Under the pieces are notes generated by a model that saw only the letters and a list, made by a program, of their open reading frames with translations, was not told the origin of the DNA and ran no database searches. This document shows, piece after piece, positions 4,774 through 48,805 of a DNA stretch of 64,000 bases. The stretch is from Parcubacteria group bacterium (GTDB lineage: Bacteria; Patescibacteriota; Patescibacteriia; UBA9934; GWF2-40-263). Each line of letters begins with the position of its first letter. Position 1 is the first letter of the stretch. The stretch spans positions 15,014 to 79,013 of the forward strand of contig JABMNZ010000008.1 in NCBI GenBank assembly GCA_013204395.1. Direction: 5' to 3'. The translations under genes were made by a program, and so were the position numbers.

Positions 4774-4849
4774 TGGGCGTAAGCCTCCTCCAGCATTTGT
4801 TTCGGGTGCTGGCTAGGCAGATTATCACCGTGACGGGCAATGTCAAGGA

Positions 4850-6364
4850 TTATAGCTCTATGGCGTCCTGTCCTCGGTATTGAAGCGCCTCAGCCAAATG
4901 TTCGACCTCAATGTCAGGTTTTCCCTCAAGATCTGCAATCGTGCGGGCAACTTTTCGGACACGCGTGTAGCCTCGTGCGGATAATTTATTGGTCCGCAAC
5001 GCTTGTTCCAAAAGAGACTTTCCATCAGGGGAAAGTTTGCAGAGTTCGTCTAACTGTCTGGTTGAGATCTCGTTGTTCGTTGAGGCTCGCTCCCCCATTC
5101 TTTTGCGCTGAACCATTCTGGCATTGTTTACACGTCTGCGAATGATCTCAGAACATTCAGGAAGATCCTCGGACAAAAGTTTTTCATGTTTAACAGCTGG
5201 AACTTCGATGACGATGTCGAATCGATCTAGTAATGGTCCTGAGATACGTTTTTGATATTTAATCACCTGGTCAAGTCGGCAGGTGCAGTGACGATTTGGG
5301 TTTGAAAAATGTCCGCACGGGCATGGGTTCATGGCAGCAGCTAATAGAAAGCGTGCTGGAAATTGCACAGAACCTGCTGCTCGTGAGACTGTCACATGTC
5401 CATCTTCAAGAGGTTGTCTGAGATGTTCAAGGGCGTAGCGAGAGAATTCTGGGAGCTCATCTAAAAATAAAACACCTCTATGTGCCAGTGAGACTTCGCC
5501 AGGCTTTGGCCACGCACCACCTCCGACGAGGGCGACAGCTGAAGCACTGTGGTGTGGCGTTCGAAAAGGTCGGGCTTGGATTAGGCCAATGTCTGGGAGA
5601 GAAATGCCGGCTATGGAGGCTATGGAAGTTACTTCCAGCGATTCTTCATATGACAGGTCTGGAAGAATTGATGGTAGAGATCTTGCAAGGAGTGTTTTAC
5701 CAGCGCCTGGAGGACCCTTTAAAAGAATATTATGAGCTCCAGCTGCGGCGATTTCCAATCCACGTTTTGCACCCTCCTGGCCTTTCACATCTGAGAAGTC
5801 ATATGGGTGTGATGAAACATCCTTTTGTTTTATTGTAGACGCTGGTTTGATTAGTTCAACACCCAGAAGATGATCAACAACTGTGCGGATGGAGTCTACC
5901 CCGTAGACCGTAAGACCACGCAGGGCACTAGCTTCTGCAACATTTTGTTCTGGAACAAAGAGAGTTTTCCTACCTGTTCTATGTGTCATTAGGGCTGTGG
6001 TGAGCGATCCCCTTACTGGTCGAATTGATCCATCAAGAGCTAATTCACCTATAAAGACAGAGGATTCAATACTTGGACGTGGGATGACACCCATGGCTAA
6101 TAGTATCGAGAGAGCAATGGGCAGATCGTAAACAGGTCCTTGCTTTCGAACATCAGCTGGAGCGAGGTTTACCGTCACACGACCACGAGGAAAACGAAAG
6201 CCGGTGTTTCTCATGGCAGCTCGTATTCGGTCCCGAGCTTCTTTGACAGAAGCATCTGGTAAACCAACTACAGAGAACGAGCGTAGCCCCATTGTCACAT
6301 CAGTTTCTACTGTGATTGGAACCGGCTCGATTCCAATGGTCGCACTTGTAATAATATGAAACAT
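4850..6364 (-). CDS. comM: YifB/ComM family Mg-chelatase-like AAA+ ATPase
   Basis: 504 aa. The N-terminal Lon-like domain MFHIITSATIGIEPV..., Walker A GPPGAGKT, and conserved C-terminal zinc-binding Cys residues match this family. Confidence 0.85.
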   Translation of the reverse strand: MFHIITSATIGIEPVPITVETDVTMGLRSFSVVGLPDASVKEARDRIRAAMRNTGFRFPRGRVTVNLAPADVRKQGPVYDLPIALSILLAMGVIPRPSIESSVFIGELALDGSIRPVRGSLTTALMTHRTGRKTLFVPEQNVAEASALRGLTVYGVDSIRTVVDHLLGVELIKPASTIKQKDVSSHPYDFSDVKGQEGAKRGLEIAAAGAHNILLKGPPGAGKTLLARSLPSILPDLSYEESLEVTSIASIAGISLPDIGLIQARPFRTPHHSASAVALVGGGAWPKPGEVSLAHRGVLFLDELPEFSRYALEHLRQPLEDGHVTVSRAAGSVQFPARFLLAAAMNPCPCGHFSNPNRHCTCRLDQVIKYQKRISGPLLDRFDIVIEVPAVKHEKLLSEDLPECSEIIRRRVNNARMVQRKRMGERASTNNEISTRQLDELCKLSPDGKSLLEQALRTNKLSARGYTRVRKVARTIADLEGKPDIEVEHLAEALQYRGQDAIEL

Positions 6365-15553: not shown

Positions 15554-15925
15554 TTACCCTCCATGCGATGCTGATAAGTGTGGTATGAACGTGTGGTTAG
15601 GTATGGGTGATTTTCTTGGGTTCCAAACTAAGTGAATTGGTTCACGTTTGACTGGGCGCAATGAGTTCAGGGACGCACACATCAGGCCAACAAGAGCTAC
15701 GAGTAGTAACTCCTTTGTTTGCACCGCCATATGTGTGCCAGGGTTGGTCCAAGTTGTTTGAGGCTCAATCTTCTCGGCTGAACAAGCTAATCCAGCGTTG
15801 GGGTCAGCTGTGGAAGTAAGACAGCTCCCCGAACTTATGAAAACAAAACCGCAGCCGATCATGGTAATGATCGTTGTGGCGGCGAGGAGTTTGCGGGTTA
15901 ATAAAACTCCCATAGAGGATTGCAT
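15554..15925 (-). CDS. Small Cys-containing membrane protein (hypothetical)
   Basis: 123 aa with 2-3 hydrophobic segments and several Cys. It has no CxxC, so it is not a canonical DsbB/VKOR. Confidence 0.3.
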   Translation of the reverse strand: MQSSMGVLLTRKLLAATTIITMIGCGFVFISSGSCLTSTADPNAGLACSAEKIEPQTTWTNPGTHMAVQTKELLLVALVGLMCASLNSLRPVKREPIHLVWNPRKSPIPNHTFIPHLSASHGG

Positions 15926-15960
15926 AGTATCATATCCCGCCAGTGCTATACTAGATAAGT

Positions 15961-16890
15961 ATGGTAAAGCAGATCGACAGATTGGTTACGGCTTTTCTGG
16001 AATATCTCGAGGTAGAACGAGGCCGTTCTCCCAAAACAATCCGGAATTATGATTTTTATTTGAGACGTTTTACAAAGTGGGCAAAGGCACCAGAACCAAG
16101 CGTGATAACAATGGACATGATTCATAAGTATCGCTTGTGGCTTAATCGAAAAGTGGCTGGTCGAGATGGAAAGACACTTAAGAAAACTACACAGAACTAT
16201 CATCTCATTGCTCTTAGGTCATTTTTAAAGTATCTCGCGCGTCAGGATATCCCCTCTCTTTCTCCAGAAAAGATCGAGCTGGCCAAACAAGAGCAACGAG
16301 AAGTCGCATTTTTAGAGGTTGAGGAATTGGATCGGTTGTTAGCTGCCCCTAAAGGTGTAGATCTTGTGACCCTGCGAGATCGGGCGATTTTAGAAATGCT
16401 TTTTTCTACAGGACTGCGCGTGAGCGAGATTTCAAATCTGAAGATTGAGCAAGTTAACCTCAAAAGAGATGAGTTTACGGTTAGGGGGAAAGGAGGAAAG
16501 CTGCGAGCTGTTTATATATCTAGCACTGCCAAGGAGGCGTTAAAGGCATATTTGGCAAAACGACGTGACACGTCCCCCTATTTATTCATATGTCATGACC
16601 AAGCAAAGTCAGGGCGAGAGAAAACTGGTGGTCTGACCCCAAGATCAATTCAGAGATTAGTTGAGAGATATGCAAAAAGCGCTGGGATCACCAAACACAT
16701 AACCCCCCACACCCTTCGGCACACTTTTGCAACGGACTTGTTAATGGGCGGGGCAGATATTAGGTCCGTGCAGTCCCTGCTAGGTCATGCGTCAATTACG
16801 ACTACCCAGGTGTACACTCACATCACGAACAAAAAGATGAAAGCCGTGCATCAGAAGTATCATGACCGTGCACGAAAAAACACCCAATGA
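15961..16890 (+). CDS. xerD: Tyrosine site-specific recombinase, XerC/XerD family
   Basis: LRDRAILEMLFSTGLRVSE...HTLRHTFATDLLMGGADIRSVQSLLGHASITTTQVYTH contains the full R..H..R..Y catalytic signature. Confidence 0.85.
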   Translation: MVKQIDRLVTAFLEYLEVERGRSPKTIRNYDFYLRRFTKWAKAPEPSVITMDMIHKYRLWLNRKVAGRDGKTLKKTTQNYHLIALRSFLKYLARQDIPSLSPEKIELAKQEQREVAFLEVEELDRLLAAPKGVDLVTLRDRAILEMLFSTGLRVSEISNLKIEQVNLKRDEFTVRGKGGKLRAVYISSTAKEALKAYLAKRRDTSPYLFICHDQAKSGREKTGGLTPRSIQRLVERYAKSAGITKHITPHTLRHTFATDLLMGGADIRSVQSLLGHASITTTQVYTHITNKKMKAVHQKYHDRARKNTQ

Positions 16891-16924
16891 CGGAAGCTAA
16901 GCTTCCGGCCCGTGGGTGTTTTTT
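16891..16924 (+). terminator. Terminator hairpin after xerD
   Basis: cggaagc-taa-gcttccg ... followed by a T run. Confidence 0.4.
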
Positions 16925-17024
16925 GATTGACAGGGGGGGGTTATCGCGTTAGTGTGTGGCCGCTATGACAGCTGGTTATGGCACAGTATCAACAGGTTAG
17001 AAGCAAGTTGTTGCAGGAGAAAAC

Positions 17025-17702
17025 ATGGATGCGGCTGGAATCGTAGAGAAAGGAAACGGTTTGATCGTGCGCTTCGCACCACTTCACGAGAGCGCAAAGG
17101 TGCTTCCCGGGGGGCTCGCAAGCATCATCGTCGATGGGAGGCGAGAGAGCCCGTGGAAGGAACAGTGGCGGTGTTCCAAGTGCAACCACAACTTCCTGGT
17201 CCACCCGACCGATGAGCAGTGCACGTGGTGTCATCAGGGGGTCGTGCAACAGCTCTGGACTGAGCGTCGCGTAGAGCGGGAGACTCTCGAGGCTCTGCAT
17301 CAGCGATGCTCTCAGGTCACAGCAGCCTTCGTTGTGGAGGCTGGTCACCCCATTCTTGTGGGGATGATCGAGCTCAGGCCGGTTGCCATGGATCAGCTCA
17401 ACGAACAGGTCGGCGCTGATGTGATCGCTGGGGTGCTCAGGCACTTCGGCCGCTCTGGAGCCTACTTCTTCGTTCAGCACCTCATCGTGGCTCCTCAGTG
17501 GCGCTCGCAAGGCATTGGGTCAAAGCTGCTTGAGCAAGCGATCAAGCGCGCGCAGCCAGATGCGCGCTCTGGCATCCCACTCATCTGCTTGGCGTCGCGC
17601 ACGCCGGTAGCTCAGGACTGGTTCGCCAAGCACCAGCTGGCAGCGGTACAGTTCATCAACGATCGGCACCTGCTGGTGGGCAACATCGTCCGCTCTGTCT
17701 AG
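17025..17702 (+). CDS. GNAT family N-acetyltransferase with an N-terminal zinc ribbon (GC-rich insert)
   Basis: CSKC...CTWC zinc ribbon, then GNAT motif A VAPQWRSQGIGSKLLEQA. GC is visibly higher than the flanks. A ctccgac-cacagc-gtcggag + T-run terminator follows at about 17735-17765. Confidence 0.7.
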   Translation: MDAAGIVEKGNGLIVRFAPLHESAKVLPGGLASIIVDGRRESPWKEQWRCSKCNHNFLVHPTDEQCTWCHQGVVQQLWTERRVERETLEALHQRCSQVTAAFVVEAGHPILVGMIELRPVAMDQLNEQVGADVIAGVLRHFGRSGAYFFVQHLIVAPQWRSQGIGSKLLEQAIKRAQPDARSGIPLICLASRTPVAQDWFAKHQLAAVQFINDRHLLVGNIVRSV

Positions 17703-17848
17703 AACGCCCTAGACTCAGGCTCTTACGGGCCAATCTGCTCCGACCACAGCGTCGGAGTTTTCATTTTCTACAGAAATGGTTACCATGCGCTCACGATCAC
17801 ACGATCATGTCACCTCGTTCGGTACAAAATAAATGCAACCACTCCTTT

Positions 17849-17925
17849 GGCTCGGTAGCTCAGTTGGATAGAGCAGGGGACTTCTAAGCCCAAGGTCACA
17901 GGTTCGAATCCTGTCCGGGCCACCA
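17849..17925 (+). tRNA. tRNA-Arg (anticodon TCT), CCA encoded
   Basis: Acceptor stem GGCTCGG/CCGGGCC and D-arm TAGCTCAGTTGGATAGAGC are identical to argU-type tRNAs. Anticodon loop is CTTCTAA. T-arm ACAGGTTCGAATCCTGT. The anticodon stem has only three clean G-C pairs as I fold it. Confidence 0.75.
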
Positions 17926-17952
17926 GAGTGGTTACATTTAATCCATTTACAT

Positions 17953-18663
17953 ATGACCAGAAACATTTTGCTATTTATTTCATTGCTTGCCATTGGTTTT
18001 GTGGTTCTCTCCATGGTGAAGGTGCCAGAAAATGAAACAGAGGTTTTTGTTCCAGAAGAAGTTGAGCAAGTGGTTGTGGAGATAGTTGAAGATACTCCGT
18101 TTGTTCAAGATGAAATGGATTCAACACGTGTTGAAGGAGCGGGGTTTCATTTTTTCATTCCAGACGGATGGTATGTCGATCCAGCACCAGAGATCTGGGA
18201 GCGATCTGGCGAAGGGTATTTCACGTATGGTTGGGTGAGGAATATTGAGAATGAATCCCCTTTTGGTCATGAGGACGAAGTTTCTTTCTCAGTTGCGAAT
18301 GTTCTTAAGGAAGATGTAAATTTTGATGAGGTTGTCTCTGGGTGGGCCGAGAGTGAGGAGCAAATGGCCGGAATTGTGAAATACATGCAAGAAGAGAGTA
18401 TCGCTCCTTATAACGAGGTCACCATGGATGATGTGGTTGTGGAGCTAGAAGAAACTGAATTTCTTGGAAAGAAGGCTTACGTAAATACACTTATTTGTTC
18501 CAAGCCTTGTTACATCGAAGGGAATCCACCTGCAATTGTTGCCTACTATTTAGATGATGGTGATTACGTCTGGATTCTGACAGCAAGAACAATCTATTCC
18601 GAGAAAGCTATTGATTTGTTAGATCAGGCAAAAGAAGTAATGGATAGTTTTGTACTAGAGTAG
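17953..18663 (+). CDS. Hypothetical secreted/membrane-anchored acidic protein
   Basis: N-terminal TM/signal ILLFISLLAIGFVVLSMV. Otherwise no motifs. Confidence 0.5.
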   Translation: MTRNILLFISLLAIGFVVLSMVKVPENETEVFVPEEVEQVVVEIVEDTPFVQDEMDSTRVEGAGFHFFIPDGWYVDPAPEIWERSGEGYFTYGWVRNIENESPFGHEDEVSFSVANVLKEDVNFDEVVSGWAESEEQMAGIVKYMQEESIAPYNEVTMDDVVVELEETEFLGKKAYVNTLICSKPCYIEGNPPAIVAYYLDDGDYVWILTARTIYSEKAIDLLDQAKEVMDSFVLE

Positions 18664-18708
18664 ACCCTTGATCAGGATCAATGATTCTGATATCCTCGGC
18701 ACTGTTAT

Positions 18709-18784
18709 GGCGGCTATGGTGAAACGGTTATCACACGGGCTTGTGGTGCCTGTATTACGGGTTCGATTCCCGTTAGCCGCCCCA
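18709..18784 (+). tRNA. tRNA-His (anticodon GTG) with encoded G-1 and CCA
   Basis: G-1 + acceptor GCGGCTA/TAGCCGC, discriminator C73, anticodon loop TTGTGGT, T-arm ACGGGTTCGATTCCCGT. A palindromic terminator follows at 18785-18825. Confidence 0.85.
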
Positions 18785-18964
18785 TATAAAAACCTCGGCT
18801 TCTGCCGGGGTTTTTATATGGGGCGGTGAATGAGGATGAGCCACCCGTCTGGTTCGATGATGGAGAGAGTGAGCGTAATAGACAAAAGTCGGTATGTTCC
18901 ACAACGACTTTTGTCTATTGCCGAACGAACGACATCAATATGGCCGGTACCTCTGCAGGGCCAT

Positions 18965-18977
18965 ATTCCCGTTAGCC
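18965..18977 (+). repeat. Degenerate direct copy of the tRNA-His 3' end (attcccgttagcc; 19/23 identity over gggNNNNattcccgttagccNcc)
   Basis: Compare 18766-18778 with 18965-18977. Confidence 0.4.
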
Positions 18978-19016
18978 ACCTCGTTTAAATACCTTTGCGC
19001 AAGCGATATTATTTGA

Positions 19017-19781
19017 CTAAATTTCCCCCATCAACCAGAGGTTTTCAAACAGATTCAGTTGGCCTAGTACTAGATCATTATTTTTAATCCTGATAGCAGT
19101 AACAGGTTGATTTGGAGTTGAAAATATCATATTTACCATCACTCCTGCTTCGGGATAAATGCGAACACCTGAAGGGTTTTCTATATTGTCAGGAAGATAG
19201 CGAATATCATAGAGATCTTCTTCCCCGGAAAGATCTTTCTGGAGCATTTGGCGGTGCGATTCATAAGAGATCATTCGAATCGTAATTCCCTGACCTCTGA
19301 TAACTTTATGGTAACGCTTCCAGAGGTGCCGCATGGTGAGTTCCATGAACTCTTCCCCACCTGTTCCAAGAATGTAAGACGTTCCACCACGTGGGACTTG
19401 TCTGATGAGTTCAGTTAAGAGCTCTAGGTAGGCCTCGTTTCCTTCATAGACAGTAATTTCTTGAACTGGATGAACCCCAAGCTCTGAAATTTTTGTAGCT
19501 ACATCCTTTGCAACTTCTGATTTTTGGATAAACTCCTGTTTGAGAATATTCGGGTCAGCAATGACAAACTGTTTTTTTCCTTTAATTTTGCTCTCAAGTA
19601 CATACTTTTTTTCAATGAGATGTTCTAAAGACGTATACACAACATTCCGGTGAAGACCGGTTTTTTTGATAAGTGGCCCACTTGTTACAGCTCCGAGCGC
19701 TGCTAATTCTAAGTACACCAAACTTTCATGCTCATTAAGACCTAGTGATAATAGATCGTTTTTTAAGGCTTTCTTATTCAT
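19017..19781 (-). CDS. TrmB-family transcriptional regulator
   Basis: N-terminal winged HTH (LSLGLNEHESLVYLELAALGAVTSGPLIKKTGLHRNVVYTSLEHLIEKKYV) plus a TrmB-like C-terminal domain. Confidence 0.7.
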   Translation of the reverse strand: MNKKALKNDLLSLGLNEHESLVYLELAALGAVTSGPLIKKTGLHRNVVYTSLEHLIEKKYVLESKIKGKKQFVIADPNILKQEFIQKSEVAKDVATKISELGVHPVQEITVYEGNEAYLELLTELIRQVPRGGTSYILGTGGEEFMELTMRHLWKRYHKVIRGQGITIRMISYESHRQMLQKDLSGEEDLYDIRYLPDNIENPSGVRIYPEAGVMVNMIFSTPNQPVTAIRIKNNDLVLGQLNLFENLWLMGEI

Positions 19782-19806
19782 GTGTTGATTCTATCACCTT
19801 TTTGGG

Positions 19807-19835
19807 TTGACAGCAATAGCATTATAGGGTATAGT
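19807..19835 (+). promoter_or_regulatory. Sigma70-like promoter TTGACA-N17-TATAGT
   Basis: It lies in the divergent intergenic region between trmB and ORF 19891. Confidence 0.4.
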
Positions 19836-19890
19836 CATTTGTCGAGTTGGAATACGTCCAGCGAGATGCAGGCAATGAAGCCTTTGGAGG

Positions 19891-20091
19891 ATGAACATGA
19901 ACGTTTTTATCGTCATGAAGATTGACGGGTGGGCAAACGGCAACCCCAAGGTCCTAAATGGACAGGTGCTGAACGTCTATCAGGATCGGTCCAACGCTGA
20001 GAAGGATGCGGGGGATCGAAATGCCGCAGAAGGGAGCGAGTACATCTGTTTCGAGGTGATTGAACGAACGGTTCTCACCGAAAATAAGTGA
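19891..20091 (+). CDS. Small hypothetical protein
   Basis: 66 aa ORF downstream of the promoter. Weak evidence only. Confidence 0.3.
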   Translation: MNMNVFIVMKIDGWANGNPKVLNGQVLNVYQDRSNAEKDAGDRNAAEGSEYICFEVIERTVLTENK

Positions 20092-20219
20092 CTCCCCTGC
20101 CCGAGGGTAATCAAATATCGGGCATTCCATTGAGGTGATCAGCCCAATGTTGATTCTCTCATAGAATACACATGCACAAAGTATAAACATTGAGCATTTC
20201 ACAAAAAGGAAAAACCATA

Positions 20220-20594
20220 ATGATTCACAGGACCCCGTTCGTCATTTTTGACGGCACCTTGTATCGAGTTCATGACAAGGGCGAACTTGTGTCGGTCATG
20301 GCCTCCCGTGGAAAGGTGCACTCAACGGTGAAGTTGCTCGTCGAATACCCAGGCAATTACGACAGGCCGGAACCTCGTTTGGATATGCTCTTTAGTGAGT
20401 GCAACTGTCCTGTAAATGTGGACAATCACTACGACGAAGATTGCTCTTGCATTGGAGACACGATTTCTTCAGGCAAGTACTTCATCTTCGAGACAAGGAC
20501 GCCAATGGTGGGTATTGGCCTCTGTCACGAGCTGATCCGCGCTGGATTTACCAGCGAGGAGATCCTCCTCATCAAGGATGTCAAGCAGGATTAG
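20220..20594 (+). CDS. Hypothetical Cys-containing protein; start moved to ATG 20220 (MIHRTPF), which is preceded by AAAAAGGAAAAACC
   Basis: ORF track 20190..20594. RBS-like purine run before 20220. A hairpin cccgtcggg...agacggg follows the stop. Confidence 0.45.
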   Translation: MIHRTPFVIFDGTLYRVHDKGELVSVMASRGKVHSTVKLLVEYPGNYDRPEPRLDMLFSECNCPVNVDNHYDEDCSCIGDTISSGKYFIFETRTPMVGIGLCHELIRAGFTSEEILLIKDVKQD

Positions 20595-20678
20595 CTTTGC
20601 AAACTCCCTCCCCGTCGGGTTCATAGACGGGATTCCCTTTTAGGAAAGAAATACTTTTTTCTTGAAAGGGAATCCAAG

Positions 20679-21026
20679 ATGATCTTGGTGACCACCCAAC
20701 AACTGGAGGTTTCCATGGACATCGATACCAACATTCAGCACACGGTTCACCCCCTGGTCGTGGAGTGGTTGGAGGCACTGATGCAGGCCTTTGACCTCAA
20801 GTTCGTCCAGGTGGGGCAACTGCTGGCCTATCACATTCCTGGAGTGGGGGAGTACGATCCAGAGCGTACGACGGTTAAGGCGACGATCACCTGCTCCACG
20901 GCCCGCTTCTCCTTCATGCTGAGTCGTTGGCACACGGATGAAGGTGAGGAGTGCTCTGATGTCTCCGCTGCAAAGGTTGAAGTAGACTTCTTCTACCACA
21001 ACAGCAGCTTTGGCAGAGCGTCGTAG
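20679..21026 (+). CDS. Hypothetical protein
   Basis: 115 aa with AAAGGGAA upstream. A terminator-like accaccg..ccggtggt + TTT follows. The overlapping minus ORF 20640..21086 was judged less likely. Confidence 0.35.
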   Translation: MILVTTQQLEVSMDIDTNIQHTVHPLVVEWLEALMQAFDLKFVQVGQLLAYHIPGVGEYDPERTTVKATITCSTARFSFMLSRWHTDEGEECSDVSAAKVEVDFFYHNSSFGRAS

Positions 21027-21166
21027 TTCCCCAACCGCCCCTTCCGTCGGGCGAGACAACAATAGACGGTTCTGACCACCGAGCATTCTGCCGGTGGTTT
21101 TCCCTTTTCCAATTATCCAACGTTGGATAATTATGTCCTTGCTGTAATAAAAAATCCCCTGTTGCG

Positions 21167-22126
21167 TCAGGGGGTGAAGGTGAGGAGTACGTCGTCCACT
21201 TCCAAGAAGAAGGAGGGTGGAGAGTATTCCAGGTTGCAGCGATGTGCCCAGAAGTCGAGCATCGGCTGCATGTCTTGCTTGAGATCTGGCCTGCCTTGGA
21301 ACGTGAGGTTGTTGGAGAGTGCGAAGAGCGTGAAGCTCATGGGGCCGAGGTCCTGAGGCTCAATTGTTTCGACCAGAACTCGGTCTTGAGCGCGGCTCAT
21401 GAGCTCAGCGATGACCTCCTTTGGGTCGGCACTTCCATCTTTTGCTGCGTGGACCAGCGTTCCAGTCTGGCTCATCACTTGTCCGAGGTAGAGAGATTCA
21501 ACGGCCACGGGGTTCATCCCATAGTCCGTTAGAACATCTATGGCACACTGCTTGTAGCTCCTGAATGCATTCCTTGAGCACGATCGCCATGTGCTGACGT
21601 CCCATTCTCGATCCTTGGCTAGTTCGCGGCACTCTTTATCGATCTGACCTGGGGTTTCGGCACACTCGGAGCCAGCGATGGTGAATGCGAGTTTCGCGGC
21701 GTCGCGATCCCCATCTTCAATGCGGTATGCGAGAGCGTTTTGAAGCAGGTCTTCTGTTTGGTCTTGGTCCAGTCCACAAAGGGCGATCACACCTGCGGGG
21801 TCACTGCTGTTACCCGCCACCAGAAGCAGGGCTGAGAGATCCTCTTGAGTGACGCTTGAGTCAGCAAAAGCTTTGCAAGCCAGAGCGAACCGTTCCTTGT
21901 AGGAACTCAGAGCTTGCAAGGCCACGATGATCTGTTGGCGTTGTCGATCCAGGGCGACGGCACGCCCACGCTCGGTTGTTGTCTCGTCGCGGGGAGAGAC
22001 GACTTGGGATGTTTGCTCCCCACTTCTGAAGGAGAGAACTACCAGCAGGAGTATCAATGCAAGTAGAGTGACAAGGCAAGATCGACGCATGGCACCTCCT
22101 CTATTCACTGTACTGGCAGAAAGCAA
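21167..22126 (-). CDS. Hypothetical secreted/anchored Cys-containing protein (GC-rich)
   Basis: Signal/TM MRRSCLVTLLALILLLVVLSF. It is co-directional with, and immediately downstream of, the 22179..23447 gene. Confidence 0.5.
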   Translation of the reverse strand: MLSASTVNRGGAMRRSCLVTLLALILLLVVLSFRSGEQTSQVVSPRDETTTERGRAVALDRQRQQIIVALQALSSYKERFALACKAFADSSVTQEDLSALLLVAGNSSDPAGVIALCGLDQDQTEDLLQNALAYRIEDGDRDAAKLAFTIAGSECAETPGQIDKECRELAKDREWDVSTWRSCSRNAFRSYKQCAIDVLTDYGMNPVAVESLYLGQVMSQTGTLVHAAKDGSADPKEVIAELMSRAQDRVLVETIEPQDLGPMSFTLFALSNNLTFQGRPDLKQDMQPMLDFWAHRCNLEYSPPSFFLEVDDVLLTFTP

Positions 22127-22178
22127 AAGACACCAGAGTAAAAGAAAAACCCGCTTGATTAGCGAGTAGTAGTAGTTT

Positions 22179-23447
22179 CTAGAGCTGGCTAAGCCACCAG
22201 TTCCACAGAGAGTTTTTAACTTCCCCAGAGTGCCAGTCTACGGCATACCCAGGCAGTCGTACCGATTTGAGAGCCTTGAGGTGATCACGAGTATTGGGAA
22301 ACCAGAGTGGTCCAATCTGTCCCAGGACCTGAAGGTGTCGATACATTTCGTGGTTGCGTTTGGTTCTAGTGAACTTGTCATTGAGATGATCACGGATAGT
22401 TGTGACCAACTGTTCCGTTGACCCACAGACGACTCGTCCGTTGTCTGCACGGTGAAGCCGTCCGATGATTTTGCGGTCCCAGTAGTGCTTGTCACTATCA
22501 GGATTTGGGGGAGATGTATCCTCCTCGTGGAACAATGGAGCCACCCAGAGCTTCTCTTGTGTGAACTTGAGAAACTCTTCGGCATCGGCGCGCGTGGCTG
22601 TCCGGACTCTGTTGCCCGTTTGTACTCCTACGACCACATACTTCCATCCACGTCGATCTCTCAGTGTCCGTCCACGCTCTAACTTGAGCAGTGTGGAGAA
22701 CAGCCGTTTGCGCCTATCGATGACGTAGATCAGGAATCGACGGTTTTTCTTCATCTGCACAGCTCGACACATCATGAAGTCGACCTTCAGCTGACCCATT
22801 TGCGCACGGATCACTTTTGTTTGGCGATTGATGCGACGCTTGTCAAATGCCAGACGGATTGTTCCTGTTGGTTGATCTGCATCCCTTACTTGAGTTGCAA
22901 ACCAGACGGTCTGAGAGACACTGGGAATAAAGACGCGCTCCCAGCAAAGAGCTTCGATGTGCTCAAGATCCTTTGCTACCCAGTACTCAGGGTCGTACTT
23001 CTCGATCGCGTAGATCTGCATGGCGATCCCGAGGTTTCGCCTTGCCTCGAAGTGTCGTCTGAATTCCAGATGAGAGGCGTGCGTTCCAGGGTCGGTTGAT
23101 GCCAACTTGAGCAGGTGCACTGGGTCCAGGCAGTTTGCGATGGTGTTATGCAGGGCAAGGCGGTCTCTGAGTGGGCGAAAGTGCTCACGGATAACCAGCT
23201 CTACCAACTCAACAGCTCTGCCAATGAAGAACGACATTTGTCGTCTGAACTCACGAGAACCAAGTAGGGCATCTACCCTGTCTGGATTTGAGTGGGTCTG
23301 GATGTAGGCGATGTAGAGCGCATCGCGGTCTTTCAGACCTTCTTCGACAAGACGTTTGTAGACCTGCCCCATCTCCGTGATGAGAGACATTTCCTCTGGG
23401 AGTGATCGGAACTGCAAGGCTTCGTCAGGGTAGAACTTTTTCAACAC
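22179..23447 (-). CDS. Hypothetical 422-aa Arg/Trp-rich protein (GC-rich), function unknown
   Basis: Long clean ORF. No Walker, DxD, HxH or YADD motifs were seen. The C-terminal RTKRNH (Rx4H) stretch could be HEPN-like, but that is speculative. Confidence 0.55.
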   Translation of the reverse strand: MLKKFYPDEALQFRSLPEEMSLITEMGQVYKRLVEEGLKDRDALYIAYIQTHSNPDRVDALLGSREFRRQMSFFIGRAVELVELVIREHFRPLRDRLALHNTIANCLDPVHLLKLASTDPGTHASHLEFRRHFEARRNLGIAMQIYAIEKYDPEYWVAKDLEHIEALCWERVFIPSVSQTVWFATQVRDADQPTGTIRLAFDKRRINRQTKVIRAQMGQLKVDFMMCRAVQMKKNRRFLIYVIDRRKRLFSTLLKLERGRTLRDRRGWKYVVVGVQTGNRVRTATRADAEEFLKFTQEKLWVAPLFHEEDTSPPNPDSDKHYWDRKIIGRLHRADNGRVVCGSTEQLVTTIRDHLNDKFTRTKRNHEMYRHLQVLGQIGPLWFPNTRDHLKALKSVRLPGYAVDWHSGEVKNSLWNWWLSQL

Positions 23448-23602
23448 GTGGTAACTTCCTCAGGATCAGCAAGATGACGTTTGACGACTTTATGGGCTTT
23501 TTCCGTTCCAGTCAATCAGATCAACCAATTAAACCACTTTACTCTGAAAAACCGATTTTTTACCTAGTACAAGTAAGAAAAACTTATCCCCGTGGCTATT
23601 CC

Positions 23603-23631
23603 TTGACACCACAAGTATGTTGCTATAGTAT
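23603..23631 (+). promoter_or_regulatory. Near-consensus sigma70 promoter TTGACA-N17-TAGTAT driving the 23743 gene
   Basis: Read directly from the sequence. It leaves a leader of about 105 nt. Confidence 0.45.
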
Positions 23632-23742
23632 TCCCGCCGTTCGTCGCAAAAACCGCGGCAGCTACGTACCGATGCGTTCCATCGGATTCGAGATCGTCCA
23701 AAGGCATCAACAACCCGCCTGAGGACACACTGGAGCAGACCC

Positions 23743-24909
23743 ATGATCCTTCGTACCCCCCGCTTCGGCACGTCACTCGTGCTGGCACTCGACCTCGACA
23801 TCGACCTCATCGGTCACCACTTCAACGCCCCCGGCAAGCCCCTCAAGGAGGGCACGCAGGACGTCAAGGTCAGGACCTACCAGGCGGCCAACGACGTCGA
23901 GTACTCGACCTTCAACGGCCAGTTCGACGCCGTCTCCGCGCTCGTGCGCGAGCAGGGCATCAACCCCGCGCTGATCCTCGCCGAGGGCGACAACGCCACG
24001 ACGCTGGACAAGAAGAGCACCCGCGACGAGCTCAAGCTGCAGGTCATCGCCATCACGCGGACCCCCGCGGGCATGACCCTGGCGCAGGCGCAGGCCTCCA
24101 TCGGCAAGTCGGACATCGAGTCCCGCTTCAAGAAGAGCTACGTCTACGTCCACTTCATCGCGGCGATGGACGACGGCATCGACATCTCCTCGGTGGGCGG
24201 CTCCAAGTACACCGGCCCCTGGGCGCAGTTCGCCAACGCCGTGCGGATCGACCGCTACGTCGACAGCGACACCCGGACCATCGCCGGCTCCAAGGGGAGC
24301 ACCAAGGTGGTGAACTTCTACGGCCGCAACGGTGACCGCACCACGCTGGCGATGTACACCGGCAGCCTCGAGAGCACCAAGGTCCTGACCAGCGGCGTCG
24401 ACATCGGCGAGCAGCTGCGGCAGGCCCCCAACAACACCTTCCTGCTGCAGGCGGTGCTGGACTCCAGAGCGCCCTACAGCACCAACGTGGACGCCATCGC
24501 CCGCTTCCTGGACGGCATCGACGCCGAGCTCAACTGGATCGAGCACGTCGTCGACGGCTCCATCACGGAGATGGCCGGCGTCGACGACACCAACAACTTC
24601 ATCTTCACGCTGCAGGATGGCGACTACGCCCACATGCCCGTGACGATGGTGCAGACCGACGAGACCACGACCCTCGTGCCCTCCAGCGCCTTCGGCGTGA
24701 AGGCGACGGACATCGGGAGCGACGACAACGTCGCCCAGATCGCCCGCGTGTCCTTCCGGACCGGCCTGCTGGTCAGCGTCGACCAGAACGGTGGCGAGGA
24801 GGCGATCCGCTTCTCCGACCTGAACCTGGGCAAGGGCGACGACTCGTCCTACGGCCAGCTCGTGGCCACCATGGTCAAGGCGGCCGGCACCGACCAGCTC
24901 GCGGCCTAG
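23743..24909 (+). CDS. Hypothetical high-GC protein, possibly structural (phage capsid-like). Unverified
   Basis: 388 aa. GC in this stretch is about 63 % (two 60-nt lines counted by hand). Composition is Gly/Thr/Asp/Ala-rich with no enzymatic motifs. A terminator follows at about 25010-25040. Confidence 0.55.
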   Translation: MILRTPRFGTSLVLALDLDIDLIGHHFNAPGKPLKEGTQDVKVRTYQAANDVEYSTFNGQFDAVSALVREQGINPALILAEGDNATTLDKKSTRDELKLQVIAITRTPAGMTLAQAQASIGKSDIESRFKKSYVYVHFIAAMDDGIDISSVGGSKYTGPWAQFANAVRIDRYVDSDTRTIAGSKGSTKVVNFYGRNGDRTTLAMYTGSLESTKVLTSGVDIGEQLRQAPNNTFLLQAVLDSRAPYSTNVDAIARFLDGIDAELNWIEHVVDGSITEMAGVDDTNNFIFTLQDGDYAHMPVTMVQTDETTTLVPSSAFGVKATDIGSDDNVAQIARVSFRTGLLVSVDQNGGEEAIRFSDLNLGKGDDSSYGQLVATMVKAAGTDQLAA

Positions 24910-25103
24910 GTCGCACCTGAACGAAGTCTGACCACGTCAGGCTGCCCATGGAGTAATAAGGCCACACGCGGGTCTTGTTCCTCCCCCACGTCCCGCTTCG
25001 GCAGGCCGTGGGTTTTTTCTTTAACTGTGTTTTACTAAATCAAGCAAAATAAAAACCACAGCATGGTAGTTGCTGCGGAGACGTTGGGAGACATGAGGTT
25101 GGT

Positions 25104-25481
25104 CTAGGTGTGAATGCCGATCCAAGCGTAGTAACAGATCAGAATGGCCACCCCCAGGTAGGTGTGAATACCGATGTGAGTCAGTGTTCCAACGAACCAA
25201 TCGTCCTCATCTGATGGGAGGTGGATTCTTTCACCACTGACCAGAGCGAAGAAGGCGAGGACTCCAGAGATCAGCCCTATGATCCCCACGATTACCAGGG
25301 ATATCCACCAAAGCCATCCATTGAGGATGTTGAGGCTCAGGATGATGGGCATGCTGATCATCACAAAACCAATAGCAACTGTCAGTCCACTTCGTGCGTA
25401 CCACTTGAGGTAGTCCATGTAAGACCTTTCTGTCCATGGATAGGACGCCTGGATGGTGCAAGAATAGCTCTGTTTTGTCAA
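25104..25481 (-). CDS. Small polytopic membrane protein (hypothetical)
   Basis: 125 aa with 3 TM segments. Confidence 0.45.
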   Translation of the reverse strand: MTKQSYSCTIQASYPWTERSYMDYLKWYARSGLTVAIGFVMISMPIILSLNILNGWLWWISLVIVGIIGLISGVLAFFALVSGERIHLPSDEDDWFVGTLTHIGIHTYLGVAILICYYAWIGIHT

Positions 25482-36100: not shown

Positions 36101-36666
36101 CGATCGAAGTTACAGAGGCAAGTGCGGTTATCTCCGCAAATATTCCGCTCGATCCTCTGCAGCAAAGTTCTGCTCAGGCAGCTACTTCGTATAAGAGAGG
36201 TCGGCTTCTACGACACATGCAACACACAGTCGCGTTTGCAGGTGTGATAGCGGCAGTTATCTTCGCAATCATCCGCCCAACACCGTTTTCAGTAGGAATG
36301 ATTGTTATACAGCTCTGTGTGCTCGTTCTTGCAAAGCGTTTGGCACGCCCAAGGAAACCAATTAGCTGGGGAGTTGTTTACGACAAGGGCACTGGAAGAC
36401 CACTATCTAGAGTTGTTACTCGTATCTTTGAGCCAAAGTACAACAAGGTTCTTGAGACTCAAGTGACCGATAGCAAGGGTAGATACTCGTTCATGCTTGG
36501 ACCAAACACGTATTACGCCACCTTCCAAAAAGATGGGTTTCACACAGTCGAGGTTCGTCCAATTGATTACTCTCAGTTAAAGGAGCCAGTTGATTTCTCT
36601 GAGGAGGTTGGACTTGAACCAGACGTCACAGCATCAACACCACCACAGCCACCATCAAATATTTAG
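33181..36666 (+). CDS. Large (1161 aa) polytopic surface protein with three FN3-like domains, an acidic linker, a Cys-knot motif and three CarboxypepD_reg-like domains separated by TM helices
   Basis: Three repeated FN3-like units (…SWSTDESGTSVVNYG…, …TWTTDESANSIVSYG…, …SWTNPTDDD…). Linker EEDDSEDESDEDTGSGDD… Cys motif CGDGVCSGSESQASCPIDC. Three repeats of the type VTDANITLYEV…GTYIVEV. At least two multi-helix TM blocks. Confidence 0.7.
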   Translation: MRTIINATRNILLVAVLATAIVMGASQVSAATLTVGNDYSSTLQISQQANHSVIFTTPTGIAEGETLTITFATAFNTSSITEDDVDIADDGVDLTTSSTCASTEQASVSIASDVVTITICAGDGGAIAAASQVTVEIGTNASSSGTGANKATNPSGAGTYFVTIAGTFSDRGSIALPIGGDDSIPVSVTVPEVESGGGDTLEDSTAPSISGLVVSSISSTSAIVSWSTDESGTSVVNYGLTESLELESFSESGYATSHVVTMTGLVEGQTYYISATSADSIGNSATSSTTAFTTLDLTPPVLSDIEVIDITYDSARVTWTTDESANSIVSYGETDAYLLSASTSAFVTLHSVLLSGLSEGTEYHFQVGSTDQSSNQVFSSDETFTTGENLPPSNVSGLVIVSGISKLSLSWTNPTDDDLAGIRVLFCEDEYPDSPTDTDCSITNYGLVEEATLSGLTAGVTYYLGVFTYDDVGQFASGALGIGLPSAPEEELPSEEDDSEDESDEDTGSGDDPVDEPTDDSESGDSDEGGDDGDSSDTDGSTDLAVFCGDGVCSGSESQASCPIDCASDSEPTSLGAEEGELSDGDIEYLVADRSISLETTSSGVVEVLPTSTLSVQIHARELSDNVSSIQLSIGSELFLLSLDETLVLYNADVTVPAQSGIQQVTVLVLYDDGSTETVSSYLRVVTPGYIYQVIDGEEVAVTDANITLYEVVGGEQIVWDGSPYDQFNPITVNSDGTFSWYVPNGTYIVEVQAEGFETTNSGQLVITNSIVNHRIAIASYERVQDEDPVTDAESEDDEKETITVIGVIETMLDYKPLQAVRESLEVVRDLPGVEGAAEVSVPTLAITAGASVVMLSVAFDFLPFLQYLFTAPVLFFWRRRRKSYGVVYNAISKTPVDLAVVRLFKVTAQDEAAGLPGRLVKSRVTDKGGRYFFLVDPGRYRITATKGGFQFPSEYMAGEKTDGQYLDVYHLEPIEVTEASAVISANIPLDPLQQSSAQAATSYKRGRLLRHMQHTVAFAGVIAAVIFAIIRPTPFSVGMIVIQLCVLVLAKRLARPRKPISWGVVYDKGTGRPLSRVVTRIFEPKYNKVLETQVTDSKGRYSFMLGPNTYYATFQKDGFHTVEVRPIDYSQLKEPVDFSEEVGLEPDVTASTPPQPPSNI

Positions 36667-36673
36667 GAGGAAT

Positions 36674-39600
36674 ATGTTGCTTAAGAGAAGTACACAATTT
36701 GTAACACTCACACTCGTCATCCTTTCTTTGATGGCAGTGTTTGGGGTTGTGTTGTCTGCTGCTCCACCTAATGTGGTTACCTATCAAGGACGAGTTCTTG
36801 ATACTAATGGGGTACCATCAAGCAGCTCTAGCCTCACTATGAAGTTCTTCTTTTATGACGCATCGTCGTCTGGAACATGTCTCTGGTCAAACTCTAGTGC
36901 TGACTGTGATAGTAATACACCAGCCTCAACCACTGGTAGAAGCGTCACCCTAACAACAGGATTGTTTACTCAGAATCTCGGTGATACATCTGATTCTTTC
37001 GCAGCCGTTGCAGATTCTGTGTTTGGCGATAATACATCTGTCTATCTTGAGGTGGACATCGCCGGAGAAACACTCTCTCCAAGAAAGAGGCTTACGGCAG
37101 CACCGTATGCAATTAATGCTCAGCGTCTTGATGGTATAGATTCAACGGGATTTTTAGCCTCAACAGGAGATACGGGAACAGGAATCTTCGATTTCACAGC
37201 AGCAACACTTGCTGGTGCGTCCCCATTCGTATTCGAGGGGACAACAGCAAACGATTTTGAAACAACATTCACGTTCACAGACCCAACAGGTGACAATGTT
37301 TACACATTCAAAGACGGGTCAGGAACAATTGCGTTCACAAGCGACATTTCAGGGACGGGTCTTTGGGAAGATGGTGTGTCTGGTGTATTCGAAGATGATG
37401 AAGCTGTTATTATCGGATCAAATGCCGCATTTACCTATGGTTCTGGTGGCGTGGGAGATTTGCAAGTATTCGATGAACTTGAGGTAATGGGAGACACATT
37501 TATAGACAACGATCTTGTTGTGGGTGCATCGACAAGCTCGACCGAGACTCTTTCCCATACATCTTTTACGCTCGATGGTGATGATCTGTTCGTTGCTGGG
37601 ACATTAGGGGTTGAAGGAGTTGTTTATTCAGATGGAGGGTTTACAGCAAGTACAACAACAACGTTTGGTGCAGGCGCTATTACCACCACAGGCTCGACAG
37701 ACTTAGCTCTGACGATTGCCGGTGGTGATTTGACGTTTGCACAAAACACTACCATTGGTGATGGGGGTGACACCATCGCAATTAGCACATCTGACTGGAA
37801 CATTACAGCAACAGGAAATCTTTCTGGTATTGGGACGATTGCAACAGATGGTGATGCCACACTGGGTGCTGACCTCATAATCTCTTCAGGTGTACGTATC
37901 GGGACAGGATCAACTCCAGCTAGTTTTACTGCTCTAGCAAACGACAGCCTGTTTGTTGAAGGGGCTATAGAGGTAGATGGTGCTGCTCGCTTTGACTCAA
38001 CAATGGATATCAATGGCATTCCTTCCATTGGAGCAGACATTACCTTTAATGCTGCCACCCCAACTATTGTTATTACAAATGGAGAAACATTTGCAATTAC
38101 CGACGGAACAAATACACTTTTTTCTTTGGTGGATGGTGGAACTGGCGGGAACCTAATTCTTACTGGAGATCTCACGATTGCTGGGGATGATTTAACCATG
38201 GACACCAATACAGCGGGCTTTCTCTTGGTAGGTGATGGAACAAATTACAACCCAGTCGATATTAGTGGAGACATAGATTTAGATTCCTCGGGTGTTGCAA
38301 CTGTCCAAGCTAACTCCGTGGCCCTTTCCACAGACACAACTGGTAACTATGTTGCAACCGTTAGTGATGCTGGTAATGGCACCATTACCGTTGGAGGTGC
38401 TGCTGGAGAAGGAACCGTCATTACTCTTGATGCGGTAAACGTGAACTGTAACGATTGTCTAGACTTTGCTGAGCTCTCGGATGCCCTTACCCTAGACGCC
38501 TCCACATCCATAACCATGGATAGCACGGACCAACTTCTTATAACCAATGGAGGTACTGGAGACGTCATCTTCAATCTTTCTTCTACCGGAGACTTTGTTA
38601 TTCAAGATAATGGGACACCAAGCTTTACTGCTTCTGACAATGGAGCGTTTACGTTTGATGGTGCTGTTACATTTAATTCAGCAACCACACATACACTTGC
38701 CACTAGTGAGAGCATTGCGATATCCAATAATACGGCGACGGCAGACACTTTTGATATTTCGGTTACAGCAGCAGGTAATGATGCGCAAGAGATAAACTTC
38801 ACTCTCGGTAATGACGGAGACAATGACACAGTCAATGCCTTGGAGATCAACGTCACGTCTGCCACGACAGGTGAGGAGGATGTTATTCGGGGGTTACATA
38901 TCGCACCACTGTCTTCAGCTGATGCTAGCGTGACAGAACAAGCGCTTGTGATTGGCTCTGGCTGGGATACAAATTTGTTTTTCAATGATACGTCAACAGT
39001 TATTGAATTGGCTGATACTGGCGTAATCACGTGGAGAGAAGCTGGAGGTACTAATACCCTCATGACCCTCACAGATAATGCCAACGTCGGCGACTTGCTC
39101 ATCTCCGGTGATTTCACGATTCAAGGCGACAATCTAGATTCAGCAGGAGCCCCTCTTGTTCTAAATGCTACAGCCGCCGACGAAGTGCGTGTTGGTACAG
39201 GTACTCCTGGGGTGGCGACAGGTGCGGGGGACTTCTATGTCACAAGCGACATAGAAGCTGATGGAAATTTGAATATTGCTGGGTCTGCGACGATTGGAAG
39301 CCTTGTTTGTAATGACTGTTTTGACTTTACTGAGTTTGCTGATGCGCTTGCTTTAGACGCCTCCACATCCATAACCATGGATAGCACGGACCAACTTCTT
39401 GTAACCAATGGAGGTGCTGGAGACGTCATCTTCAACCTTTCTTCTTCTGGTGATTTCGTGATTCAAGATGGGGCTACGCCAATATTTACAGCTGGAGGCG
39501 ATGGCACGTTTACGTTTGATGGTGCCACAACATTTAACACAGATGTGACCTACACCTTAGTTGCGACAGAGAACGTGGCTATTACAAACACATCTGCAGA

Positions 39601-47581: not shown

Positions 47582-47657
<76 letters not shown>

Positions 47658-48555: not shown

Positions 48556-48805
48556 TTTCTGTTCCCTTCGCGAACAGTTGTGCGACTCAATAAAGAAAAG
48601 CCCCACACTTCCTCCCTCACGCAAGAAAAGGAAGTATGGGGCGCCGGGCTGAGCCCGGCAGACCGAGCGATCCACGCTGGGGGGCATGGCTCTAGCTCGG
48701 CAAACCGAGACTTACCGCAGGGGTGACGTCTCGGTTTAGCACATGCACCTATTAGGCACGGCTGGTTAGTCCAGCCATGGGGGTCCCCTTAAGGGCATGT
48801 GGGTC

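Follow-up and report, generated by a model that had tools for sequence, protein, structure and literature searches.

The locus considered here raises two questions: what are the products of two divergently oriented genes that have no functional annotation in public databases, and did the GC-rich region in which they lie enter the genome from outside? The region is part of a stretch of 64,000 nucleotides (nt) from a Parcubacteria group bacterium (contig JABMNZ010000008.1), which as a whole is called the window below. A preliminary description of this DNA had proposed a horizontally acquired island, with a novel defence or phage-derived system and a capsid-like structural protein. The two open reading frames (ORFs) on which it was built exist, and their unusual make-up was confirmed: the 422-amino acid (aa) protein, labelled F0 here, is Arg/Trp-rich and basic (pI 9.8, 11% R, 2.6% W), and the 388-aa protein is Gly/Thr/Asp-rich and, in addition, acidic and Cys-free. 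Because all named F0 homologues belong to Candidatus (Ca.) Uhrbacteria or Patescibacteria, the window is from a Ca. Uhrbacteria genome, which places it in the Candidate Phyla Radiation (CPR). The explanation that we prefer, with a probability of about 0.55 when taken as a whole, is that F0 is a divergent enzyme of the RelA-SpoT homologue (RSH) type, that its neighbour is a highly expressed, propeller-like protein, and that the region is a lineage-specific chromosomal module of Ca. Uhrbacteria rather than a foreign island.

Comparison of six ORFs of the region with Pfam, PHROGs, PADLOC and NCBIfam gave nothing useful except a TrmB and a GNAT assignment. F0, the 388-aa protein and a 319-aa protein had no meaningful match in these four hidden Markov model (HMM) libraries, which agrees with the earlier description of the 422-aa protein as unclassifiable; in PADLOC-DB 2.0 the three were unmatched, and one small ORF gave chance-level Cas3 fragments. 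We obtained 45 full-length F0 homologues of ~425 aa, 35-93% identical, all unannotated and all from Uhrbacteria/Patescibacteria. Their alignment contains the invariant motifs RRKRLxSTLLKLERGR, DRRGWKYVV, Y..D, EQLVTT and NHxxYR, in an order typical of RSH synthetases. These motifs were recognised in the alignment before the fold search, and Foldseek then pointed independently to small alarmone synthetases (SAS). With the AlphaFold2 (AF2) model of F0 made from the alignment (predicted local distance difference test score, pLDDT, 92.6; predicted template modelling score, pTM, 0.91), the top 38 matches in the PDB were all enzymes of this kind (RelP, RelQ, SAS1, SAS2, 2BE3 and 3L9D), with a Foldseek probability of 0.84-0.99 in 33 of them and a lowest value of 0.44. 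The core of the model is a five-stranded mixed sheet with the elements listed in Table 1, an order that by our comparison corresponds to that of the RelQ SYNTH core. An Rx4H stretch near the C-terminus had been described as HEPN-like. The residues R361-x4-H366 are present, but the HEPN assignment was rejected: there is no HEPN protein among the 50 Foldseek matches listed, and the consistent matches are alpha/beta RSH enzymes. N365 and H366 are invariant, and from the sequence we read them as a putative RSH-type H..Y[KR] helix motif.

The residues of the ATP-donor site defined in FaRel2 have counterparts in F0. In FaRel2 the triphosphate is bound by R64, K66, S70, K74 and R77 (PMC11782079), and the same residues with identical spacing are found in F0 as R245-x-K247-x3-S251-x3-K255-x2-R258. 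The Mg-binding Asp of FaRel2, D90, which is followed by G93 and R95 (PMC11782079), corresponds to D264-x2-G267-x-K269 at the start of strand 266-277 of the F0 model, and the G-loop Tyr, Y128, would correspond to Y322, placed just before strand 325-335. E145 and Q147, which lie on beta5 of FaRel2 and recognise the donor adenine (PMC11782079), would correspond to E345, on strand 338-350, and Q346; the row of core residues ends with N365-H366-x2-Y369-R370. Seven of these positions (R245, K247, K255, D264, G267, Y322 and E345) are the same in 45 of the 45 F0 sequences, R258 is kept in 44, K269 in 43 with an Arg in one more, and S251 in 37 (82%). The regular expression R.K...[ST]...K..R.{3,30}D..G.[KR] retrieved only F0 proteins among the 1,917 ORFs of all loci; it was found in none of 20,000 shuffled F0 sequences, and in 79 of 120 RelQ proteins. 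The fold match and the conserved residues are in accord with the earlier impression that the 422-aa protein is enzyme-like.

Several results weigh against the RSH assignment. The Foldseek E-value was only ~0.02, the target-normalised TM score was 0.38-0.46 and the root-mean-square deviation from the SAS structures was high. The Pfam model PF04607 (RelA_SpoT) matched none of the 45 F0 members, even at E up to 10, and a PDB profile search with the F0 alignment found no RSH enzyme, its sole match being a spurious designed helical repeat. When F0 was compared by hhalign with RelQ profiles (from three PDB sequences, or from ~120 homologues), the probability was <1%; these profiles were shallow (effective number of sequences ~2) and lacked secondary structure, and the test is weak because the RelQ profile held only homologues at least 67% identical. 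In addition, Gln follows the catalytic Glu at position +1 in F0 (E-Q), and not at +2 (E-x-Q). The missing link by sequence profiles and the E-Q pair, as well as the large novel N-terminal and beta extensions, would suit a protein that has the RSH-like fold and another chemistry, e.g., nucleotidylation of a protein or a small molecule, or a non-catalytic nucleotide-binding regulator. We consider this quite improbable: all residues of the triphosphate-binding set, the Asp that binds Mg, the Tyr assigned to the G-loop and the Glu are invariant, apart from the few substitutions given above, and such a pattern is hard to explain without RSH-type catalysis. From the model and the alignment, F0 is thus likely to consist of an RSH SYNTH-like core in which the ATP-donor site is intact, with a helical N-domain of 175 aa and additional strands as elaborations.

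With such a site, F0 would bind ATP-Mg via R245/K247/S251/K255/R258 and D264, and would pass the beta-gamma pyrophosphate to the 3′-OH of an acceptor, whose base would be stacked on Y322, with E345 taking part in catalysis. The product would be a nucleotide that serves housekeeping or regulation, an alarmone like (p)ppGpp or (p)ppApp, and the activity may be controlled by the novel 175-aa N-terminal helical domain. The best, and the only consistent, structural matches of F0 are RelQ/RelP (SAS1/SAS2; PDB 5DEC, 6EWZ, 6FGK, 2BE3), with which it shares the donor motif R-x-K-x3-S-x3-K ... D-x2-G-x-[RK]. F0 differs from them in being twice as long, by its helical N-domain of 175 aa and extra beta strands, in being unseen by PF04607 and hhalign, in having the Gln at +1 instead of +2, and in being confined to Uhrbacteria. 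With FaRel2 and CapRelSJ46 (PDB 7ZTB; PMC11782079, PMC9712102) the donor-site residues correspond one for one. F0 is basic, as the toxic SAS (toxSAS) enzymes are, and its extra domains are part of the same polypeptide, as in fused CapRel; unlike FaRel2 and CapRelSJ46, it is without an antitoxin gene and without the pZFD/YXXY element, and it is non-mobile, in a fixed and vertically inherited locus. The extension of F0 is N-terminal and helical, whereas the CapRel-type extension is a C-terminal zinc-finger-like domain.

The chromosomal position of F0 was then compared among related genomes. In 15 of the 18 loci mapped (GTDB genomes and contig look-ups) F0 is in one syntenic slot, in the order RmuC-S20-holA-polA, a short variable stretch, F0, a short variable stretch, and GNAT-XerD-F8-DsbA-MFS-S15; the exceptions, L016-L018, are the most distant loci and have other neighbours. 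The identity of F0 in each locus tracks that of polA, XerD and DsbA: in the nearest lineage polA is 80%, XerD 87% and F0 64% identical, and in all other lineages polA is 63-68% and F0 39-46% identical. Relative to the closest relative locus, L021, where F0 is 93% identical to that of the window, the ratio of nonsynonymous to synonymous substitution rates (dN/dS) was 0.08 for F0 and 0.07 for polA. F0 is a single-copy, vertically inherited gene under purifying selection, and since its identity tracks that of core genes and its dN/dS equals that of polA, it was not recently acquired. No relative of F0 was found by tblastn in 50,697 phage records, or by a profile scan in IMG/VR. The neighbours that vary among loci include the 319-aa Cys protein, a PIN-MazE pair, DUF5680 and an AhpC-like redoxin. 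The latter, a membrane-anchored AhpC/TSA-like protein of ~360 aa, lies directly upstream of F0 and on the same strand in L001, L003, L008, L012 and L019, between F0 and the divergent GC-rich gene described below; it is absent from the window.

These variable flanks can also be seen as a defence hot spot, and F0 as a self-inhibited, CapRel-like toxic SAS, i.e., an immune or abortive-infection effector that would pyrophosphorylate the tRNA 3′-CCA once a trigger is sensed by its extension at the N- or C-terminus. The fold and donor site of F0 are as in the tRNA-modifying toxSAS enzymes, its core is very basic (pI 10.4) and the preceding beta region even more so (pI 11.2), its extra domains are large, as in fused CapRel, and PIN-MazE pairs and an IS1595 transposase adjoin F0 in several loci. 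The very basic core and the extra domains are why we keep this as the main rival, although it is unlikely. toxSAS modules have a patchy distribution and are accompanied by a small, conserved gene for an antitoxin (PMC7229694), whereas F0 has a fixed syntenic position and is inherited vertically in single copy. In the mapped loci there is no toxSAS-type arrangement, for the flanks of F0 vary on both sides and no conserved small co-directional ORF was found. The absence of F0 from PADLOC, phage and IMG/VR collections, and strong purifying selection over its whole length, also speak against an effector. A role in the synthesis of a housekeeping or regulatory nucleotide is favoured over that of a toxin, because F0 occurs as a single copy, is inherited vertically, keeps its synteny in most loci and has no conserved antitoxin-like neighbour. 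Judged from the model, F0 most likely represents a previously unrecognised, HMM-invisible family of RSH-like pyrophosphokinases fixed in the Uhrbacteria chromosome.

The GC-rich nature of the region was confirmed (GC 0.50-0.66 over 20-25 kb, against ~0.45 in the flanks), but its foreign origin was not. The GC content at third codon positions (GC3) of F0 equals or exceeds that of core neighbours in every Uhrbacteria locus with comparable core genes, by ~0.1-0.2 in most, and in most loci GC3 is also raised in the GNAT gene, the 319-aa gene, F22 and DUF3307. Recent horizontal transfer as the source of the high GC was rejected, as the elevated GC3 is retained by the orthologues across lineages. 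Because F0 and 388-aa orthologues keep their raised GC3 whatever the background, the composition is no sign of recent foreign origin. The region consists of two parts, a strain-specific 2.1-kb indel (19007-21110) and a conserved block. The raised GC, the library searches, every one of which came back empty, and the tRNA-His that adjoins the 2.1-kb strain-specific insertion are what an island of foreign defence or phage genes would offer. Against it, the raised GC3 is a conserved property of orthologues in every lineage, synteny with core genes is kept, no capsid fold and no phage or IMG/VR relatives were found, and insertion-like behaviour is limited to the segment with the TrmB gene and small ORFs. 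A defence system in particular is contradicted by the empty PADLOC run, by the absence of F0 from IMG/VR and by its syntenic, vertical inheritance. The island view is largely refuted, and we give it hardly any credence.

Two observations on this part of the chromosome are added. The syntenic GNAT acetyltransferase gene, at 17025-17702(+), has a GC3 of 0.73, its orthologues have 0.48-0.86, always above the local core genes, and its synonymous divergence (dS) from L021 is very low (0.11). Low dS relative to L021 is found throughout the central block (15554-25481), with 0.28 for F8, 0.11 for GNAT, 0.41 for F14, 0.37 for F16 (the 319-aa gene), 0.45 for F0 and 0.63 for F22, while the flanking core genes have 0.87 (XerD), 1.14 (DsbA), 1.08 (polA) and 1.5 (holA). 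A more recent recombination of the block or a codon-bias constraint is a possible cause.

The divergent neighbour of F0, the 388-aa protein, which is called group A here, matches at 100% identity a hypothetical protein from a 'Parcubacteria group' metagenome-assembled genome, and an exhaustive HMMER search yielded 23 distant relatives of 330-425 aa. In the AF2 model (pLDDT 83.5) the N-terminus is disordered, one part is alpha/beta and the C-terminal half is all-beta. The matches reported by Foldseek were the Vps15 WD40 domain, Ctf4, AztD, Cdc20 and the prolyl oligopeptidase propeller in the PDB, and Kelch, BNR, RCC1 and WD40 proteins in BFVD, so that beta-propellers of the WD40/Kelch/BNR kind are at the top in both. 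The capsid or phage-coat nature that had been proposed for this protein was rejected: no capsid was among the top 50 Foldseek matches in the PDB or BFVD, there was no PHROG match, and tblastn of the 50,697 phage records was empty. The propeller-like reading has its own difficulties, since the similarity is weak (E 2e-4 to 1e-2) and no more than a portion of the chain is aligned; the protein further differs from propellers in having no Pfam repeat family and an N-terminal third that is alpha/beta.

The codon usage of the 388-aa gene is extreme. Its GC3 is 0.98 (C3 0.65, G3 0.33), against ~0.41 in the core genes of the window; T-ending codons make up ~2%, AAA, GAA and CAA are not used, and CTC/CTG, CGC/CGG, and AGC or TCC/TCG are. 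Group A orthologues in L001, L003, L012, L019 and L021 have a GC3 of 0.96-0.99, although the proteins are only 25-69% identical and the genomic backgrounds differ; the exception is one distant member of the family, in a low-GC lineage, with a GC3 of 0.49. In the window S20 and recA are biased to C-ending codons, and S20 also to G-ending ones, which fits selection in favour of these codons in genes that are well expressed. Relative to L021 the 388-aa gene has dN 0.23, dS 0.24 and dN/dS 0.98, against dN 0.03-0.11 and dN/dS 0.03-0.30 in ten neighbouring genes, and dS ~1.1-1.5 and dN/dS 0.06-0.07 in polA, holA and DsbA. Compared with its neighbours the protein evolves 2-9 times faster, and compared with polA, holA and DsbA the synonymous sites of its gene change 4-6 times more slowly; the protein sequence is under relaxed or diversifying selection.

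A near-consensus promoter, a 5′ leader with a first stem-loop (see below) and C/G-ending codons would allow the 388-aa protein to be made in very large amounts, and from these sequence features it is probably highly expressed. By analogy, it would most plausibly be a major envelope or surface protein. S-layer genes have strong promoters, long structured 5′ untranslated regions (UTRs), biased codon usage and high sequence variability (PMC3666127); the 388-aa gene resembles them (e.g., Lactobacillus slpA; PMC3666127) in its efficient promoter, long structured 5′ UTR, strong codon bias and highly variable sequence, and the acidic, Cys-free protein resembles S-layer proteins. It differs in being small (~40 kDa) and in having a propeller-like fold that is not a known S-layer fold. 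The surface assignment is weakened by the absence of an SLH or other anchoring domain in the Pfam search and by the N-terminal hydrophobic segment, which is short, atypical and contains Asp, so that secretion is only putative. The expression argument is weakened by the lower dS (0.1-0.6) across the whole F8..F22 block than in its flanks: biased gene conversion in a recombining block could instead explain the extreme GC3.

Opposite the 388-aa gene a 286-aa antisense ORF is open. We rejected it as a gene: its residues are mostly G, A, V, D, E, L, R, H, Q and P, as given by G/C first codon positions, and because this make-up is expected opposite a gene with GC3 ~1, we interpret it as a by-product. 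In the NCBI record of L021 the antisense ORF (335 aa; 4912-5919(+)) was called instead of the real gene, which has a GC3 of 0.96 (4567-5760(-)). Extreme-GC3 genes in these genomes are thus an annotation trap, being prone to wrong-strand gene calls.

The divergent pair was sought elsewhere by listing all ORFs with a GC3 of at least 0.85. Among ~28 related loci with enough sequence upstream of F0, ~17 have a divergent extreme-GC3 gene, 3 only a remnant of its leader, and 8, of low-GC or distant lineages, neither. In L002/L005, L006, L007, L008 and L013 this gene (group B) has the same place and divergent orientation and a GC3 of 0.94-0.99, and its product of 220-330 aa, with the N-terminal motif MRSxxLTLLLAISGF and the C-terminal motif LAPAYGAxA, could not be related to group A by BLAST (E above 0.04) or by hhalign (probability <1%). 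The same picture is repeated in the independent metagenome loci L024, L029, L030, L031 and L032. The partner gene keeps its extreme GC3 (~0.97) in genomes with a core GC3 of 0.39-0.64. When the start codon is set according to the leader, most proteins of groups A and B begin with a short hydrophobic segment (e.g., MRSLTLLLAVSGF), a stretch of 10-12 residues such as LTLLLAISGF or LVLAL, and both families end in a similar short motif, ...QLAA or ...LAPAYGAxA (e.g., window 23743-24909, L002 6913-7791, L007 1728-2615). Going by sequence, these common termini may be shared targeting signals.

The TTGACA-N17-TAGTAT promoter already noted for the 388-aa gene was found, back to back with a promoter-like site of F0 (Table 1), and a GTCAA(T) block (TTGAC on the F0 strand) is at the same place as the latter in other loci. 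Upstream of the 388-aa promoter there are conserved blocks, CTTATCCCCG and GAAAAACCGATTTTTT; these, the -35 and the -10 are kept in loci whose partner proteins are only 39% identical or not detectably related, and the upstream region including the ~110-nt leader is far better conserved than the partner gene itself. When the leaders of four group A genes were used to build a covariance model, the element was recovered directly upstream of group B genes (E 3e-9 in L013 and ~5e-5 in L007, L008 and L009), and a second covariance model detected it in independent metagenome loci not seen before (E 3e-16 to 8e-13). The first hairpin, P1, has 96.9% of its cells paired, and each of its seven base pairs varies, three of them with changes in both partners; its covariation score was 0.548, against 0.393±0.034 in shuffles (none of 500 reached it) and 0.09-0.17 with the partners slid. 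P2 is predicted in most single-sequence folds, with a register that varies, and 51% of its cells are paired in the model-made alignment; P2 and a possible pseudoknot are tentative because their support consists of single-sequence folds and a manual register. Rfam gave only tRNAs, both for the window at the gathering threshold and for the region with E up to 1, and the leader was unmatched. A 5′-proximal stem-loop behind a near-consensus promoter is most simply a leader that stabilises the mRNA. The three remnants, also detected with the second model and located upstream of F0 genes that lack an extreme-GC3 gene, are at L004 9816-9865(-), between polA and F0, L025 3196-3245(-) and L034 3816-3865(-), with E 0.0008-0.003; they suggest that the partner gene was lost and part of the regulatory region retained.

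Could the two genes form a functional module, in which a nucleotide signal made by F0, or a modification of tRNA isoacceptors, controls the neighbour via a riboswitch-like leader or via its C/G-ending codons? The divergent pair with back-to-back promoters recurs in ~17 of 28 loci, with two partner families without detectable similarity, the leader has covarying helices and no Rfam family, and a possible pseudoknot (ACG:CGU to CUG:CAG) is seen in the manual alignment. However, ~8 loci have F0 but no partner, and in 3 the leader is found without the gene. The partner gene is missing from about one third of F0 loci, and this speaks against obligate coupling. Stabilisation of the mRNA is the simpler role for a 5′-terminal stem-loop, P2 and the pseudoknot depend on a subjective alignment, with P2 only half paired in the model-made one, and the thermodynamic z-scores of the leader were mostly unremarkable. 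Such a module is very unlikely in our estimate. Its most far-reaching form, a new regulatory module in which an alarmone, or the inactivation of tRNA isoacceptors, would be read out by a hyper-abundant envelope gene via a new riboswitch class or C/G-codon dependence, is less likely still.

The remaining features of the region are included in Table 1. The 319-aa ORF downstream of F0 (F16) had been described as a co-transcribed secreted Cys protein; it does have an N-terminal hydrophobic segment and 8 Cys, but co-transcription is doubtful because a terminator-like hairpin separates the two genes. Homologues of F16 follow F0 in L001 (51% identity), L003, L012 and L021, and in none of the other loci. 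The TrmB-family gene that was described as a regulator directly upstream is present, but this role was not supported, as the gene is part of the strain-specific insertion and absent from L021. It is 77% identical to a TrmB gene at a different position in L006 and 22-28% identical to the TrmB genes of other loci, which are next to or near polA. The three small ORFs of the indel have no homologues in related loci and no family matches. The 2.1-kb segment looks like a small insertion next to tRNA-His, without an evident link to F0.

Table 1. Features of the F0 region (window coordinates; residue numbers for elements of the F0 model)
Feature	Position	Strand	Remarks
tRNA-His	18710-18784		adjoins the indel
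Strain-specific 2.1-kb indel	19007-21110		no counterpart in L021; flanks align at 83-88%
TrmB paralogue in the indel	19017-19781	-	PF01978, E 8e-8
Consensus promoter in the indel	19807-19835	+	scan, 11/12 consensus
Small ORF in the indel, after the promoter	19891-20091		66 aa; plausible ribosome-binding site (RBS)
Small ORF in the indel, after the promoter	20190-20594		134 aa; plausible RBS
Small ORF in the indel, after the promoter	20679-21026		115 aa; plausible RBS
F16	21167-22126	-	319 aa; N-terminal hydrophobic segment, 8 Cys; downstream of F0 in a subset of lineages
Terminator-like hairpin and T-run between F0 and F16	22149-22167	-	scan
F0, putative pyrophosphokinase	22179-23447	-	422 aa; helical N-domain aa 1-175, extra beta region 176-235, catalytic core 236-385, conserved C-terminal tail
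F0 catalytic core, aa 236-385	22293-22742	-	beta1-alpha-beta2-alpha-beta3-beta4-beta5-alpha in the AF2 model
F0 beta1	aa 236-244		AF2 model
F0 helix	aa 249-257		AF2 model
F0 beta2	aa 266-277		AF2 model
F0 helix	aa 286-299		AF2 model
F0 beta3	aa 305-308		AF2 model
F0 beta4	aa 325-335		AF2 model
F0 beta5	aa 338-350		AF2 model
F0 helices	after aa 350		AF2 model
F0 promoter-like site, TTGACT-N17-TAAAGT	23487-23515	-	consensus scan, 9/12 matches
Near-consensus sigma-70 promoter of the 388-aa gene, TTGACA-N17-TAGTAT	23603-23631	+	scan, 10/12 matches
Structured 5′ leader of the 388-aa gene	23631-23742	+	P1, P2, P3, then GGAG and ATG
Leader hairpin P1	23639-23662	+	
Leader hairpin P2	23669-23685	+	
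Leader hairpin P3	23696-23726	+	
Shine-Dalgarno sequence GGAG	23732-23735	+	
388-aa protein (group A)	23743-24909	+	acidic, Cys-free; N-terminal alpha/beta part, propeller-like C-terminal part; GC3 0.98
Antisense ORF inside the 388-aa gene	23773-24633	-	286 aa; interpreted as a by-product of GC3 near 1, not a gene
F22, small membrane protein	25104-25481	-	125 aa; between the 388-aa gene and polA; conserved in L003, L006, L021

Other GC-rich or unassigned genes were noticed elsewhere in the window. A second GC-rich stretch, at 47857-54532 (GC 0.57-0.60), adjoins a tRNA-Ala (47582-47657) and has five ORFs of 276-677 aa, none with a Pfam match. Two pentapeptide-repeat proteins (PF00805), one with a GC3 of 0.88, are encoded in a GC-rich patch at 62117-63596. 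The 164-aa ORF at 4279-4773(-), with a GC3 of 0.87, a lipoprotein-like N-terminus (MRHMLLALMGLTLTAC...) and no Pfam match, is another isolated high-GC3 gene in low-GC3 surroundings. A giant ORF of 2,613 aa at 36590-44431(+) has no Pfam match at E up to 1e-3.

RSH censuses depend on HMMs (PMC7229694), and F0, a putative RSH-like family missed so far, is invisible to PF04607. A full-text literature search returned no paper on alarmone signalling in CPR/Patescibacteria, and none in the library searched that links Uhrbacteria to RSH enzymes. At the F0 locus two protein families without detectable similarity stand behind one conserved promoter and leader, and by analogy the 388-aa family is a good candidate for a major, rapidly evolving envelope protein of Uhrbacteria. 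If the two genes did act as a module, there would be a direct link between the nutritional or translational state and the production of the surface coat in minimal CPR cells. If F0 is active, it would stand for an RSH-like subfamily that is structurally elaborated and limited to a single candidate lineage, and it is a concrete protein on which (p)ppGpp, (p)ppApp or tRNA-PP chemistry can be tested in CPR organisms.

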